Source: Nitrososphaerota archaeon (GTDB lineage Archaea > Thermoproteota > Nitrososphaeria > Nitrososphaerales > Gagatemarchaeaceae). Taken from it: DNA of 64,000 nt. Below the pieces are notes generated by a model. The model searched no databases. It worked only from the letters and a program-made list of their open reading frames with translations, and had not been told where the DNA came from. Shown one piece after another: positions 5,222-47,961 of this stretch (positions are counted from its first letter, which is position 1; every line of letters begins with the position of its first letter). Made by a program: the position numbers and the translations under genes. The DNA lies in NCBI GenBank assembly GCA_027887005.1, contig JAPCJI010000008.1:2162-66161 (forward strand). Reading direction: 5' to 3'.

Positions 5222-5245
5222 CGGAAGTTCGACCGCGGTTCAAAT

Positions 5246-5344
5246 GCGGGGGTACTCAAGCCTGGTCAACGAGGCGGGACTTAAGCGGTATCCTGAGAAA
5301 TCCCGTCCCTCAGGGGTTCGTGGGTTCGAATCCCACCCCCCGCA
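5246..5344 (+). tRNA. tRNA-Leu(UAA) with a ~14-nt intron at the canonical 37/38 position
   Basis: Hand fold:
- acceptor gcggggg/cccccgc
- anticodon stem cggga/tcccg with loop cttaag[cggtatcctgagaa]a
- long variable arm
- T-arm gtggg-ttcgaat-cccac. Confidence 0.8.
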
Positions 5345-5437
5345 TCAACAGAACCGAGAAATTGAACGCCCCTAGGATTCCCCTTGCGCAATGCTTGTTT
5401 AGGTGATGGCAAAGACCGCGTCTAGTTCGAGCAACCG

Positions 5438-43296: not shown

Positions 43297-43593
43297 TCAA
43301 AGGACTTCTATGGAGCTCTCGGAGAAGCCATGTTGCATGAGCATCTTCTGGGCGGCCTCCCGGTGGTCTCCCTGAAGGATCATGATCCCGTCCTTGACTG
43401 TCCCGCCGGTGGCAAGGGCCCGTTTCATCTTGGAGCTCAGCTCGTGCATATCCTTTTCGCTCATCTTCAACCCTTCGATCACTGTGGTGGGCTTGCCAAA
43501 GCGGCGCATCTCCATCCGGATTTTTACACGGGCTTCTTCACGGTCGAGCTCGGCGAGAATATCCTGGAATCCTTCGTCTAGGTCCTTGCTCAC
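43297..43593 (-). CDS. SUI1: translation initiation factor aSUI1 (eIF1 homologue)
   Basis: 98 aa with RRFGKPTTVIEGL...LATGGTVKDGIMILQGDHRE. Confidence 0.85.
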   Translation of the reverse strand: MSKDLDEGFQDILAELDREEARVKIRMEMRRFGKPTTVIEGLKMSEKDMHELSSKMKRALATGGTVKDGIMILQGDHREAAQKMLMQHGFSESSIEVL

Positions 43594-43679
43594 GACTTAC
43601 GTTTGGCTTCGGTTTTGAGGGTCTAATTAGGCTTTGGTCATTTGCTTAAAGCCATCGCCTTCCGAACCGATGAAACCGT

Positions 43680-43788
43680 GGGCCCGTAGCTCAGCGTCTG
43701 GAAAAGGCGGGAAATTCGGTTAGAGCGACCGGCTCATACTCCCGGAGGAGACACCGGTCGGTCGCCAGTTCAAATCCGGCCGGGCCCA
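43680..43788 (+). tRNA. tRNA with CAU anticodon (elongator Met or Ile2) carrying two insertions: ~18-21 nt in the D-loop and ~14 nt at 37/38
   Basis: Hand fold:
- acceptor gggcccg/cgggccc
- D-stem gctc/gagc enclosing 30 nt
- anticodon arm accgg-ctcata[ctcccggaggagac]a-ccggt
- T-arm gccag-ttcaaat-ccggc with one A-C mismatch. Confidence 0.7.
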
Positions 43789-43792
43789 CACT

Positions 43793-44251
43793 TCACTGAT
43801 TCTTCTTTGGGGCGCCCGGTGTCTTCCAGTCGGGAAACGTGCTGAAATGCTCGTGGGCTATCTTCCAGCCTTTCATGGTCCTCGCGAGCACCATGGTCAC
43901 CCTCGCCCTCGAGCCCACGGGTGAACCCTCGAAGGAGTAGTCGTTGATGAACATCCCCTTGTATGCCAGGTAGAAGGTGGCCACCGCCGCGTCCCCCAGG
44001 AGGTCGATCCGCAGGCTGTCGATTTGGTACGAGTAGTCGGAGATGTTGGCGAAGGCGGCCTGCTCGTGAACGAACGCCTCCTCCGAGTTCTGTCTGGTGT
44101 AGGGGGCGTTTTCGTCGAACTTCGAGAAGGAATCGTGGGCCGAGTGGAAGCCAGCGAGGGAGCTCAGGTCCTTGTTCTTCCCCGCCTCGAAGAAGCCGAA
44201 GATGACCGAGGTTATCTCCTTCTTTTCCCTGTCCGACTGTGATTCAGCCAT
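43793..44251 (-). CDS. NTF2-like / SnoaL-type (DUF4440-like) protein
   Basis: 152 aa. The pattern FFEAGKNKDL ... GDAAVATFYL ... RVTMVLART-KGWKIAHEHFS is typical of SnoaL-like folds. Confidence 0.55.
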   Translation of the reverse strand: MAESQSDREKKEITSVIFGFFEAGKNKDLSSLAGFHSAHDSFSKFDENAPYTRQNSEEAFVHEQAAFANISDYSYQIDSLRIDLLGDAAVATFYLAYKGMFINDYSFEGSPVGSRARVTMVLARTMKGWKIAHEHFSTFPDWKTPGAPKKNQ

Positions 44252-44321
44252 GTCCCTAGGGCATCCCTCGGGCTTTCAGACTAAGAACGTTTTTCAGCCC
44301 ATCGCGGAACCGACCGCCTGC

Positions 44322-44419
44322 GGCGCCGTAGCTCAGAAGCAGGTAGCTGCTGGGCAGCGTGGTAGAGCAGCAGGCTGTTAACCTGTTGGTCGTCGGTTCG
44401 AGTCCGACCGGCGCCGCCA
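44322..44419 (+). tRNA. tRNA-Asn(GUU) with a ~22-nt D-loop insertion and a genomically encoded CCA
   Basis: Hand fold:
- acceptor ggcgccg/cggcgcc
- D-stem gctc/gagc enclosing 30 nt (ag + aagcaggtagctgctgggcagc + gtggta)
- anticodon arm gcagg-ctgttaa-cctgt
- T-arm gtcgg-ttcgagt-ccgac
- discriminator g followed by cca. Confidence 0.75.
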
Positions 44420-44469
44420 GAGTCATTCTTGTGGAACTCTAAAATATCCAAAAGCTGAATCATCTGATC

Positions 44470-44766
44470 ATGAATACCAAGAAGTTGTCTACTGTGGCAG
44501 TAGAAGTCGGAAGCGCCGCTCTTTCGATTTATGGCTTCGCGAGCGCATTGTACTGGTATTGGATTTTTCTTCAATCAGCGCCCAATCAGACCATAAGCTC
44601 CAATGCTCTTGTGCTTCAGGGCGTCCCTCTTTCCCACATCATCGAGAGCCTTTTGACAATAGCCCTAGGCGGCTTCGTTCACACTTTACACAGGCTTTGG
44701 CCAGAGATTCTCGACCTTTTCGAGCGCGTTGGGCAGGGAGTCGAGTCTGAGGCGAGACACGTGTGA
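44470..44766 (+). CDS. hypothetical small membrane protein
   Basis: 98-aa ORF with two hydrophobic segments. No motif recognised. Confidence 0.3.
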   Translation: MNTKKLSTVAVEVGSAALSIYGFASALYWYWIFLQSAPNQTISSNALVLQGVPLSHIIESLLTIALGGFVHTLHRLWPEILDLFERVGQGVESEARHV

Positions 44767-44938
44767 GCTGTTGGAATCTGCTCTTTGAACCCACCAGGCC
44801 AGCTCTATTCGAAGTATCTTGACTGGTCCATTTGGCTTTGTCTGAATCTGGTTTCTTCGTTTGTTGCGAGCATATTCGGAGCCCCTTCGGCAAGAAAGAC
44901 CATAAATAGTTGCTAGCGCAGAATCGAGGCGGCAAGAC

Positions 44939-45106
44939 TTGAAGATAGACCTATTCTGGACAGTCGCCATAATCCTAGTGGTCCTGTGGCTATTCGGGTT
45001 CATCGGCGGGGTCGGCGGGGAGTTAATCCATCTATTGCTGATCGTCGCCGTCATCGTGGTAGCCTACAGACTCTTCACTGGGAGAAACGTGGTCACGGGC
45101 AAATGA
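44939..45106 (+). CDS. lmo0937-family-like tiny membrane protein (55 aa), not in the supplied ORF track
   Basis: Hand translation gives (L)KIDLFWTVAIILVVLWLFGFIGGVGGELIHLLLIVAVIVVAYRLFTGRNVVTGK. The pattern W-x-I-I-L-V-x-LWLLGF...LIHLLL is characteristic of that family. TTG start. Confidence 0.5.
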   Translation: MKIDLFWTVAIILVVLWLFGFIGGVGGELIHLLLIVAVIVVAYRLFTGRNVVTGK

Positions 45107-45613
45107 CTGCGCTCGAACGTGGGGTAATCAGTTAGGTCAGTTTCATCTTGTGACCGCAAAGATGACACTTCCTCGAACCCTCTTCTTCGGGGAAGATATT
45201 CGCCAGGTCGCATTTGCACGTACATGGGACTAGGTCTAGAGTTGACCAATCACAACTCTTGCACAAACTGAGACAACTTTTCGTGTCGCTGTGATTTATC
45301 TCTATCCGGTGTCAGAACGAAAGATTGAAGCTCTTGAAGCAACGCTCTTCACTTGGATTGGAACGACCCTGCGACGATTGATCATGGCCCGGAACCACTT
45401 TCCAGACCTGTTTAGGGGGGTGTTCCACTGGACCCACGAATTCGAATTGCATGCTAGGTTTCAGTAAGGGAGTGCGACCAGACTTGCGCTCTGAGCTCGG
45501 AATGCGACGCTGTCGGCGAAATCAGTTCGCATTACTCCCGACTTTTTCCGTTGGATGTCCCGGCGACAGCACGCCGTTTCCATTCGAGTCCCAAGCCAGG
45601 TGCAAATCTGCAG

Positions 45614-45631
45614 CGAGTCCGAGCGGCGCCG
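45614..45631 (+). repeat. direct repeat of the tRNA-Asn 3' end (cgagtccgaGcggcgccg)
   Basis: 17/18 identical to 44399-44416 (cgagtccgaCcggcgccg), in the same orientation. Confidence 0.65.
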
Positions 45632-46014
45632 TCGAGAATAACCTCAGACTGAACTTTGTTTGCCTAGATTAGCTAGATTCGCCCCTGTTTTCACGGCTGT
45701 TGCCGCTAGGTTCGAATCACACCGACCTCACCGCATGCAAAGCACACGTGCTACTATTCCCGCATTGCATACATCGCATCTCACTCAAAGCTTCCGTGCG
45801 GTAGCAGGGATTTCAACCTGGGTTTGTTCCGTAGGGGCGCCTACCTGAATTGACAAGCCCCGGCCAGGACGCCACGTTGCGGAAGTAGTTTGGGTCTGAA
45901 CTCGGCACGACAAATCGGTCGAGCTTTCCCTGCTCCCCCACAGAAAGCAGATCCGAGCCTCTTTCCTCGAAGGAGGAGGTGGGTGGATCGAACCTTCCTG
46001 CCCTCGCTGCTGAT

Positions 46015-46251
46015 TCACTTGGTGCGGGCGGGCTTGTGTACGTAGGCTTCCACGATATCGCGGACGTCTCTCTTCTCCTTGAATGACTGTCTCCATAGCT
46101 CGTCCCGTCTCCCGGGGGCCATCTTGTTCCAGTACCTTGCGATGTCATCTGCCACTTCCAAGACGTAGAACTCGCCCTGCTTGAACGGTCGTTCCCGGCC
46201 CTGCCCTACAACAGGCTGAGAGCCGTTGTCCTTCACTCTGATTGAGGCCAT
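46015..46251 (-). CDS. small hypothetical protein (78 aa)
   Basis: ATG start and charged, balanced composition. It is the last gene in a co-directional run with 46312..47961 and 47969..48739. Confidence 0.4.
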   Translation of the reverse strand: MASIRVKDNGSQPVVGQGRERPFKQGEFYVLEVADDIARYWNKMAPGRRDELWRQSFKEKRDVRDIVEAYVHKPARTK

Positions 46252-46311
46252 AGGAATCCCCCCGAAACCCCGGCGTAAAAAGGACAGGGTCGTGACTGGG
46301 TGGAGGGAAGA

Positions 46312-47961
46312 TTACCAGAAGGGCGTGAAGCTGACCATGGTTGAGCTCGAATTGCTGAACGTCACCCTGTATGTGGACGCATTTGGCTGCCCCTGGACTC
46401 CTGGGAATGATTCACCCCACCTCCAGAGCACCTTCCAGTAGGACTGGTCACCCTGGAGAGATTCTGAGTGGTCGATGCAGCTCCATGTCCCCTGCCAGAA
46501 TATCGACGGACACGAGAATGAGACAGACCAAGGACCGCTTAGGTCTCCAAGCTTTGAAACCCCGAATTGGAAGAAGAAGGCGCCGCCCGGGGAAGGATTG
46601 TCCGGAGGACCGAGCCAGCCTGCATTGAAGGCAACGTTCGCGCGCGCCGACGCTTCGAAAGCTCCAAGCTGGTTCGTCTGACCGCCGGTGCTGTACTCCC
46701 AGAGGACCGTGTGATTCTCCCAACTCAGCGTCAGCTGGAGTTGATCCCCGGGATTCACGACGGTGAAGTGTCGAGAGGCGAAGAACATCAGGAGCCGCCA
46801 GGAGTGACCTCCGCAGGCGGCGTTCGCATCGCAGACCTTCCAGGCAGTGGCGTCGAGCATCTGACTTCCGTTCCCGTACAGGATTGCGTCGAAACGGTAG
46901 CCGTAGTCAATCCCGTCGGTGCAGCAGTCGGCAGAGTGGACCCCGATGCCTCCGGCGAGGAAACCTCCCGCCGGGGCGGAGGAAAGGTCGTGACTGGGGA
47001 AGGTCACGTTGACCCTCACGCCAGTGGGCCGGACCATCGGGCTTGACATGAATCCTCCCGCCGAGTCTGGAATGCCATAGTAGTAGCTAGTAGGTGCTCC
47101 TGAGTTCGAAGTCGAAATAACCTGTCCTACAACCGCGTCGGGCCAGACCACCAGGGAAACTAGGATCACGAAGACGAGCATCCCTGCAAATGGGAGGGGC
47201 GACCGCCTGAAGCGCGTAGTGGCCCGGGTCGGGCGCAAGAGGATGAAAGCCCCCGCTGTTGCTCCCGCCAGAGTTGCGAGGATAGTCAGACCGACCGTGG
47301 GGAAAATCTCCGAATAATACTGCTTGGCCATGCCCAGGCTGACCAGGACAAGCGCTGCCTGGGCTGCAAGCGGCAGGAGCCATGTCGCGGGCCGCGTTCT
47401 GTCCGCGAATAGGAGGACAGCCGAGAATGCGAGGAACGCCAGGAGGGCGGGAAGTGCGGCTCCGTCGGCGGGCGCTAGAATCGTCGCTCCTGCGATGGTG
47501 AAGACCATGGGGATGTATGCGACGGCGTAGAAGGCGCTCCCGCCCGCAAGCAGCCTCTCCCAATCGCCTCTGTCTGAAGTACTGCCTCTGCGGTGGCCGA
47601 GGTATGCGGTCGCGATCCCTATGGCGAGGAAGAACGAACCCATCCTTGCAGGCTCGAGGCCGTCGACCCCAGTGCTGTAGCATAGGATTGGGTCGCAGAC
47701 GGTGAAGAACAGAGTCATGAGGGTCAGGACGGAGATGAGGTATGCCAACCAGGCGTGCACCAGGCTCCTGCTTCCGTAGCCGATGACTACCCCGGCGAAG
47801 GCGAGATAGTAGATATCGAAGTAATACCGCTGGCCCGAGAAGAGGAAGAAGAGGTTGCTATGGAAAAGATAGAGGTTCTGGGCGAGTCTTTCGAAGGCAT
47901 ACGGCGGAACCACAGTCAGTACCAGCGCGAGGGGCCACCAGAGTATCCGGAACGTCGCCAT
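46312..47961 (-). CDS. polytopic membrane protein with a ~270-aa Cys-containing beta-rich C-terminal (probably extracellular) domain
   Basis: About 9 N-terminal hydrophobic helices followed by a Gly/Ser/Trp-rich domain (GGFLAGGIGVHSADCCTDGIDYGYRF...). Starts 7 nt after the stop of the C1 peptidase gene. Confidence 0.55.
   Translation of the reverse strand: MATFRILWWPLALVLTVVPPYAFERLAQNLYLFHSNLFFLFSGQRYYFDIYYLAFAGVVIGYGSRSLVHAWLAYLISVLTLMTLFFTVCDPILCYSTGVDGLEPARMGSFFLAIGIATAYLGHRRGSTSDRGDWERLLAGGSAFYAVAYIPMVFTIAGATILAPADGAALPALLAFLAFSAVLLFADRTRPATWLLPLAAQAALVLVSLGMAKQYYSEIFPTVGLTILATLAGATAGAFILLRPTRATTRFRRSPLPFAGMLVFVILVSLVVWPDAVVGQVISTSNSGAPTSYYYGIPDSAGGFMSSPMVRPTGVRVNVTFPSHDLSSAPAGGFLAGGIGVHSADCCTDGIDYGYRFDAILYGNGSQMLDATAWKVCDANAACGGHSWRLLMFFASRHFTVVNPGDQLQLTLSWENHTVLWEYSTGGQTNQLGAFEASARANVAFNAGWLGPPDNPSPGGAFFFQFGVSKLGDLSGPWSVSFSCPSIFWQGTWSCIDHSESLQGDQSYWKVLWRWGESFPGVQGQPNASTYRVTFSNSSSTMVSFTPFW

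Follow-up and report, generated by a model that had tools for sequence, protein, structure and literature searches.

What does a partial copy of the end of a tRNA gene, lying just downstream of that gene, say about the history of the DNA between the two copies? The question is raised by a 64-kb stretch of DNA (the window), which is C25:2162-66161 (contig and positions) of a 1.6-Mb genome, G000, from the order Nitrososphaerales. Metagenome-assembled genomes (MAGs) of the same genus were obtained from Danish soils and from peat of the SPRUCE experiment. We compared the locus across a sample of 55 species-level genomes of the genus, the nearest of which have about 75–80% nucleotide identity in the flanking genes. 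We propose, with a probability of roughly 0.8 on the strength of these sequence comparisons, that an 18-nt repeat of the end of the tRNA-Asn gene is an attachment-site scar, and that the locus was built by serial site-specific integration at the 3′ end of this gene, with newer inserts proximal to the tRNA and older ones decaying distally.

The sequence CGAGTCCGACCGGCGCCG at 44399–44416 (+ strand) is the 3′ end of tRNA-Asn. It is repeated on the same strand as CGAGTCCGAGCGGCGCCG at 45614–45631 (+), with 17 of 18 positions identical; the single mismatch, at position 10 of the 18-mer, is C in the first copy and G in the second. A preliminary description of this DNA had claimed this same-strand direct repeat, and we confirmed it at both positions. 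Searching the window for the 18-mer with up to 3 mismatches gave 2 matches, versus 0.13 expected from shuffled sequences. In the whole assembly, there are just these two copies with at most one mismatch (the next best matches have 2–3 mismatches and are on other contigs), so the 18-mer is not a dispersed repeat. Could the similarity be a coincidence without biological meaning? The shortness of the repeat, and nothing else, speaks for this. At the stringency of 17/18, the expected number of matches is far below 0.13 per window, and the 1.6 Mb hold no other such copy. Furthermore, the second copy is in the orientation of the tRNA, 1.2 kb downstream of it, and the arms on either side of it also accompany partial tRNA copies in many genomes (see below). 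We consider chance to be a negligible explanation.

The presumed target of integration is the tRNA-Asn(GTT) gene (44322–44419, +), which would be the original attachment (att) site, attB, and now attL. ARAGORN's raw call, 44343–44419, rests on a mismatched and poor acceptor stem. The 5′ strand of the acceptor stem, GGCGCCG, is at 44322–44328, as is also indicated by the Rfam alignment. Once a 21-nt intron in the D-loop (44337–44357) is removed, ARAGORN reports a canonical tRNA-Asn of 77 nt whose CCA is encoded and whose 7-bp acceptor stem is perfect. The coordinates of this gene are therefore corrected to 44322–44419. The first copy of the repeat (core copy 1, 44399–44416, +) is the last 18 nt before the CCA and comprises the end of the T-loop, the 3′ strand of the T-stem, the 3′ strand of the acceptor stem, and the discriminator.

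Comparison with relatives that lack the insert had been set beforehand as a test, and the outcome favors insertion: seven congeners have empty sites, and others are filled differently. The far side of the insertion point is marked by a conserved 78-aa gene (46015–46251, −), which tblastn finds at 64–76% identity in 17 congeners. In the window, 1.6 kb of foreign-looking DNA separates tRNA-Asn from this gene. In the seven empty sites, tRNA-Asn is followed directly by the 78-aa gene (22–76 nt). The gap is 22–26 nt in G010, G005, and G058, and it is a conserved spacer of 70–76 nt in G015, G064, G067, and G068. Five other congeners (G003, G013, G024, G009, and G063) have differing inserts at the same point of tRNA-Asn, with partial tRNA copies of their own. 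Among the orthologous loci that we examined, none has the same spacer but lacks the repeat. In G011 and G023, what looked like a second copy, 32 kb downstream, has 3 mismatches and lies within unrelated sequence without arms.

The cleanest of the filled sites is in G013 (1.9 kb). Its tRNA is followed by a conserved arm, one glycosyltransferase (GT2) gene, another arm of the type that precedes partial copies (the X arm; see below), a degenerate core TAGACCCGACCAGCGCTG, the intact 76-nt spacer, and the 78-aa gene. In G024 (4.4 kb), there are three core copies. The GT2 module comes second, and between it and the tRNA is a module that encodes a secreted protein and a DUF1801 protein. The GT2 modules of G013 and G024 are 88.7% identical and their flanks are 83% identical. 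The 1.1-kb insert of G003 ends in a degenerate copy, CGACTCCGACCAGCACCG, exactly where the tRNA ends in the empty sites, about 19 nt from the 78-aa gene. In G063, a scar and the spacer lie beside the 78-aa gene, and the tRNA is on a different contig. In G009, 12.4 kb lies between tRNA-Asn (with its conserved arm) and a degenerate scar beside the 78-aa gene. We rejected the G009 insert as an intact element because its content (within G009:C11:9500-23292) is a complete-looking purine-biosynthesis cluster (purD, purH, purL/Q, purF, purN, folD, purC, and purM). Finally, G059 has tRNA-Asn and three more junctions at intervals of about 2 kb; the units between them hold three paralogous cyclase-TPR genes in a row, as well as a V4R protein and a SnoaL protein. 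Paralogs of this adenylate/guanylate cyclase-TPR protein (about 645 aa) are single-gene units between junctions in G059:C22, G068:C5, and G064:C9.

How many inserts are there in the window? The preliminary description had read the two copies as attL and attR. An insertion scar at the 3′ end of tRNA-Asn is supported, but the copy at 45614 is not the outer boundary, as there is a third copy at 45926–45943. In our reading of the sequence, the locus looks like two stacked modules rather than a single insert, with the copy at 45614 as an internal junction. Module A (44420–45613, +) is an AT-richer insert of 1.19 kb, which is absent from the orthologous site of the seven congeners. It is followed by core copy 2 (45614–45631, +; 17/18), which forms the junction between modules A and B, and by module B (45632–45925, +), which is about 300 nt and now has no genes. 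Core copy 3 (45926–45943, +) is degenerate (CGAGCTTTCCCTGCTCCC) and matches the tRNA core at 11/18 positions; we placed it there because this is the position predicted by the register of the X-arm alignment. Thus, the identity of the core drops outward from the tRNA, from 18/18 to 17/18 to 11/18. Between the last scar and the 78-aa gene is the presumed ancestral flank (about 71 nt; 45944–46014, +). Its length resembles that of the 70–76-nt spacer at the empty sites of G015, G064, G067, and G068, while the similarity in sequence is merely suggestive.

We found no credible gene in 45632–46014 by searching for open reading frames (ORFs) and with Pfam, which bears out the earlier statement that about 400 nt past the second copy are non-coding. 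Rfam found nothing besides the tRNA in 43500–47000. The same non-coding stretch had also been described as containing T-loop-like scraps. Such scraps (counted as octamers) are mildly enriched in the insert, with 2–4 found versus 0.1–0.4 expected (post hoc P of about 0.0003–0.008). Aligning the scrap at 45709–45735 (+), GGTTCGAATCacaCCGACCtcaCCGCA, which resembles a T-loop and acceptor strand, to the end of the tRNA requires two 3-nt indels. It is possibly a further decayed copy of the core, although the similarity is weak. G024 has an analogous extra core copy about 80 nt past its tRNA-Asn.

The copies of the core do not stand alone. Behind tRNA 3′ ends, or partial copies of them, genomes of the genus have a conserved non-coding sequence of about 55 nt, which we call the motif arm (45632–45689, + in the window). 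By BLAST, the motif arm of the window has 75–83% identity to what follows the tRNA in G013 and in G024, and to what follows the second copy in G024. Upstream of the partial copies are X arms, of which the window has two. The short X arm (45582–45613, +) consists of ATTCGAGTCC and about 22 more nt; the sequences that precede the partial copies of G024 and G063 align with it, and those of five more copies do so more loosely. The long X arm (45831–45925, +) opens with a 43-nt motif (GGGGCGCCTAC..GACAAG.CCCGGCCAGG.CGCC) and aligns in register with the arms that precede partial tRNA copies in G068, G009, G067, G063, G024, and G013. Altogether, about 10 partial copies from eight genomes all begin with (TT)CGAGTCC and have homologous X-arm sequence upstream. 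Whether the arms are shared with the tRNA-Glu locus of the same window was also considered, but this was not supported, as the flanks differ.

This constant boundary bears on another explanation, in which the partial copy arose by segmental duplication, unequal crossing-over, or illegitimate recombination at a fragile site near the tRNA, and the insert is translocated chromosomal DNA. Several observations are in keeping with this. In congeners, the three genes of module A have homologs at places that look like ordinary chromosome, the purine operon of G009 lies between the tRNA and a scar, and the paralogous cyclase-TPR genes in the arrays of G059, G068, and G064 could reflect tandem duplication. 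G015 also has a partial, inverted copy of the tRNA-Asn 3′ end about 1 Mb from the tRNA. However, random duplication would not predict a core whose 5′ boundary is shared by about 10 copies from eight genomes. The ancestral spacer is intact beyond the scars of G013 and G063, which implies precise insertions. Also, unrelated inserts are found at one point in different genomes, and in G052 an integrase gene lies beside a junction of this kind (see below). So we think that duplication or rearrangement without a recombinase is unlikely to explain the locus as a whole. As a minor process it certainly contributes in places, namely the operon of G009 and the inverted copy of G015.

The inverted copy in G015 (G015:C1:1336410, −) has a flank that resembles the spacer after that genome's own tRNA-Asn, which would fit a large inversion between att-type sites.

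Serial integration would work as follows. DNA circles that carry a copy of the last 18–20 nt or so of tRNA-Asn would be inserted into the 3′ end of the gene by site-specific recombination of the tyrosine-integrase type. Each insertion would rebuild the tRNA, and the distal end of the insert would be left with a partial copy of it. Because the intact tRNA remains a usable target, later arrivals would insert beside it and push the earlier ones outward. We prefer this account because it explains the constant 5′ edge of the duplicated core, the precise retention of the ancestral spacer beyond the scars, and the unrelated contents of the inserts in different species, and because it agrees with known thaumarchaeal elements (PMC6563490) and with tRNA-proximal islands. 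We infer both the order of events and that a tyrosine integrase is the agent.

Where might such an integrase be encoded? Tyrosine integrases of PF00589 are present in 33 of the 55 genomes of the genus, with 0–9 copies in each. The genome studied here has four, none of them on contig C25, and comparing these four by tblastn to 74 loci gave no homolog. The only junction-adjacent integrase that we found is in G052. There, two junctions with cores of the tRNA-Asn type bracket a NosD-like gene. A 357-aa tyrosine integrase (PF00589, E = 2.7e-10) is encoded about 300 nt past the second junction, and a fragment of an integrase is upstream of the first. This unit is not beside a tRNA-Asn gene. Contig C20 of the genome studied here encodes an intact integrase of 391 aa, with which the G052 integrase shares 46% identity over 237 aa. 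We consider integrase-mediated insertion at these junctions to be plausible, and the link between G052 and C20 leaves room for action in trans.

Next to the C20 integrase (at about 145.8–147.4 kb), on the strand opposite to it, is a tRNA-like fragment. Direct repeats of 17 nt, ATAACGCCCAAAACCGA and CTAACGCTCAAATCCGA, lie on either side of the integrase, and a third copy is found 4.9 kb further on. The region may be a separate integrated element of this genome.

Several results weigh against our proposal. First, the ORFs of 44420–46014 have no match to PF00589 or to any other recombinase or mobile-element family in Pfam at E ≤ 1; nor did we find an integrase on contig C25 or in the tRNA-Asn modules examined in G003, G013, G024, G059, and G063. 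Second, the preliminary description had suggested that an element carrying the 18-mer be sought in viral contigs. This came to nothing: a 20-mer core had 0 matches in the viral contigs, so no element bearing attP was found there. Third, core copy 3, at 11/18, is not significant on its own. Fourth, a weak sequence like the motif arm is found behind three intact tRNA genes in this genome, so the motif arm may be, or mimic, a native tRNA trailer rather than the end of an element. Fifth, module A lacks a motif arm: homology to the region upstream of its first gene begins 12 nt past the tRNA, so its left edge is the end of the tRNA itself. Sixth, the genes of module A have homologs at other chromosomal places in relatives, so these genes are not demonstrably foreign. 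Finally, the housekeeping operon between att-type sites in G009 implies that rearrangement acts there as well, and not only insertion.

Other searches with the arms were also negative. The most conserved part of the motif arm had 0 matches in viral contigs. Using the motif arm to fetch metagenome contigs gave 8 matching contigs, seemingly from the same genus, and no integrase homolog was found in the sequence retrieved from them.

We noticed that when the motif arm is translated from its reverse strand, the peptide NSxNLANLDKQRLFWAYL keeps turning up and extends into the tRNA core; stops interrupt about half of the copies. This peptide may be left over from an ancient coding sequence, or it may be coincidental, with the DNA site itself being what is conserved. 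So we also considered that the partial copy and its arms might be relics of a self-splitting ("suicidal") integrase gene of the type found in SSV (Sulfolobus spindle-shaped virus), with the motif arm as the leftover coding sequence for the integrase's N-terminus. Many motif arms do encode the peptide and continue it into the core, and a survey of thaumarchaeal elements (PMC6563490) includes one whose integrase is split in an SSV1-like manner. However, the stops in this frame also affect the copy in the window. Across the 55 genomes, the junction peptide occurs only in short or broken frames, and the few long frames are out-of-frame overlaps with neighboring genes. Furthermore, no frame next to the scars gives a Pfam integrase signal, and the integrase gene of G052 is oriented towards the junction and ends 300 nt before it. 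An SSV-type relic is, in our view, very unlikely, and we return to serial integration.

If integration built this locus, what was integrated? Module A was described earlier as AT-richer, and indeed the G+C content of 44420–45613 is 50.6%, as compared to a genome mean of 58.5% (standard deviation 3.3% in 1.2-kb windows); it falls in the bottom 1.4% of them. The same description had listed only two ORFs, of 98 and 55 aa. Both are present, but a third conserved ORF, of 44 aa and on the − strand, had been overlooked. The first gene (44470–44766, +) encodes a 98-aa predicted membrane protein of unassigned family, which is intact in four congener loci, with 69–84% protein identity. The second (44939–45106, +) encodes a 55-aa small membrane protein of the DUF5670 (lmo0937-like) family (PF18919, E = 1.4e-12), and is intact and 73–91% identical in five congener loci. 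The third (45132–45266, −) encodes a 44-aa cysteine-rich, zinc-ribbon-like protein, intact and 75–77% identical in two congeners; a 61-aa frame that overlaps it is broken by stops in relatives.

In congeners, the 98-aa gene is elsewhere in the chromosome, and in two genomes it lies about 0.65–1.06 kb from a tRNA-Thr. In G001, its homolog shares a 10-kb contig with ABC and zinc transporters and with an integrase, which stands at the start of the contig. The homology upstream of the 98-aa gene covers a TATA-like box and is promoter-like. The 55-aa and 44-aa genes are, in congeners, loosely linked to one another and to the 43-nt motif. For annotation, our account explains a 1.6-kb anomalous stretch and flags three tiny conserved genes as accessory cargo.

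The preliminary description had concluded that most of the element was lost. We could not confirm this. Throughout the genus, this locus as a rule holds modules of 1–2 kb that lack an integrase, so they may never have been large. We consider it roughly equally likely that the modules are decayed leftovers of larger elements or that they are small non-autonomous units served by an integrase in trans.

The genus-wide distribution of the junctions is relevant to this choice. We built a junction model (X arm, core, and motif arm) from five genomes, including this one. It has 10–19 matches per genome in a clade comprising G013, G024, G063, G064, G067, and G068, and 2–3 matches in G010, G005, and G003, the subgroup nearest this genome by the pattern of introns in tRNA-Asn. 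Among the matches, one motif arm is found behind the 3′ ends of several different tRNAs across the genus. Some matches are complete multi-intron tRNA genes that are orthologous in three species, and others are partial copies after X arms. The conserved arms occur mostly in modules of 1–2 kb without an integrase. RNAalifold, run on 23 junctions, gave 0 conserved pairs and no consensus structure.

The 43-nt motif of the long X arm (GGGGCGCCTACnTnnAnTGACAAGnCCCGGCCAGGrCGCC; 45831–45873 in the window) has 17 copies in this genome, some of which stand alone. Twelve of the 17 are within 200.5–274.8 kb of contig C1, and the others include copies on C12 and C21. This cluster on C1 may be a large cassette or an accessory region. 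The motif is also present in many congeners, where it often opens a long X arm upstream of a partial tRNA copy. It has no match in Rfam.

The introns of tRNA-Asn vary among the congeners, with up to three positions in use. The gene in the window has the D-loop intron only. G010, G015, G005, and G003 have the D-loop intron and the canonical intron at position 37/38, while G013, G024, G009, G064, G067, and G068 have the canonical intron and one in the variable region, without the D-loop intron. Because of these multiple introns, ARAGORN misses or miscalls most of the relatives' tRNA-Asn genes, and we found them through BLAST hits to pieces of the gene. Elsewhere in the window, at 5245–5346, ARAGORN reports a 102-nt "tRNA-???" with a 4-base anticodon, which is probably a miscalled multi-intron tRNA.

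These patterns raise the possibility that the modules are complete small cassettes, each with a core, a motif arm, 1–3 genes, and an X arm, which are non-autonomous and are inserted, and perhaps excised, by an integrase encoded elsewhere. Such modules would form a store of genes like that of the cis-mobilizable elements (CIMEs) or integrons. G013, G024, G059, G068, and G064 all have modules of 1.1–2.2 kb in which the conserved genes are intact and both arms are present. In one clade, there are 10–19 matches to the junction or motif arm per genome and 0–6 integrases; G059, at 94% completeness, has 13 matches and no match to PF00589. The GT2 module is first in the array of G013 and second in that of G024, and an intact integrase on another contig of the genome studied here, from the same family as the junction-adjacent integrase of G052, is a candidate for acting in trans. 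On the other hand, we found no identical or near-identical cassette at two different loci, and we saw neither a circular form nor an excision junction. The arrays seem to be inherited vertically across species-level divergence, as the GT2 modules are 88.7% identical and the flanks 83%. The core copies decay away from the tRNA, as would be expected for inactive scars. Also, module A has no motif arm, and the junction, unlike attC sites, has no conserved secondary structure. We regard complete cassettes as possible, with well under an even chance of being correct.

The broader version of this idea is that, across the genus, tRNA genes anchor stores of cassettes with one to three genes each, which are moved in trans by a family of tyrosine integrases. 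We are more doubtful of this. The cassette junction may be about 170 nt and consist of the long X arm with its 43-nt motif, a tRNA-specific core of 18–20 nt, and the 55-nt motif arm.

How does the locus compare to known systems? Among the closest are the cryptic integrated elements of thaumarchaea, whose hosts belong to the same phylum. In the survey by Krupovic et al. 2019 (PMC6563490), the att sites have a median length of 17 bp (the repeat here is 18 bp), and tRNA genes account for 57% of integrations, nearly always at the 3′ end. As at this locus, the 3′ part of tRNA genes is targeted, including tRNA genes with introns; sites were validated by comparing occupied and empty loci of relatives; and arrays that re-use one site are acknowledged. 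However, the elements in that survey are defined by their integrases and range from 2.6 to 98 kb (median 17 kb), whereas the units here are 0.3–1.2 kb (1–2 kb in the relatives) and have neither an integrase nor a replication gene. X-arm and motif-arm sequences common to junctions at different tRNAs are not described in the part of the survey compared here.

The locus is also like the tycheposon islands of Prochlorococcus (Hackl et al., bioRxiv 10.1101/2020.12.28.424599), in which older elements are displaced outward as newer ones arrive, with partial tRNAs left behind. Those islands are adjacent to tRNAs, their elements are separated only by partial copies of the island's tRNA, and they hold scattered degenerate remnants. 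But tycheposons have a bacterial host and att sites of about 40 nt. Both intact and fragmented integrases are found within their islands, and their excision was demonstrated experimentally.

The gene capture associated with SSV-type integration also yields a chromosomal segment bounded by direct repeats of a tRNA 3′ end. She et al. (2001–2004) reportedly described archaeal segments that are bounded by direct repeats of tRNA 3′ halves and were trapped after the integrase was lost. In SSV-type capture, the att site is inside the integrase ORF and fragments of the integrase abut repeats of 29–69 bp, whereas we detected no integrase fragments at this locus.

The locus may be comparable to CIMEs and other products of tandem accretion: units without an integrase are stacked at one attB here (three core copies), in G024, and in G059. 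The CIMEs of Streptococcus, studied by Pavlovic, Bellanger and co-workers, are said to be att-flanked islands without an integrase, arranged in tandem at the attB of related elements that bear one, that derive by deletion from integrative and conjugative elements (ICEs) and that were mobilized in cis in experiments. CIMEs are bacterial and ICE-derived; in contrast, the sole link here to a unit with an integrase is the locus in G052.

Integrons, and the clusters of attC sites lacking integron integrases (CALINs), resemble the arrays described here in that promoter-poor units of one or two genes are separated by a recurring site of the recombination type, sometimes with no integrase nearby. However, attC sites are imperfect palindromes that recombine as folded single strands and are acted on by IntI. 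The junction here has no conserved structure, and we saw no IntI. Furthermore, the junction contains the 3′ end of a tRNA, and its anchor is a tRNA gene instead of attI.

Hotspots of integration anchored on tRNA genes are thus an already known process that has been described at the level of the phylum. What goes beyond the literature compared here, including the part of the thaumarchaeal survey mentioned above, is the very small size of the modules, which lack an integrase, and the composite junction that is common to different tRNAs of the genus. These little-studied Nitrososphaerales of peat and soil would thus remodel their genomes at tRNA genes, in small steps, with junction sequences that are conserved across species and across different tRNAs. 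If the modules are mobilized in trans, this bears on how accessory genes are exchanged in streamlined archaea with few integrases. And if the cassette idea is true, then module A would be a cassette rather than a decayed large element, and the system would be an archaeal, tRNA-anchored functional analog of integrons or CIMEs.

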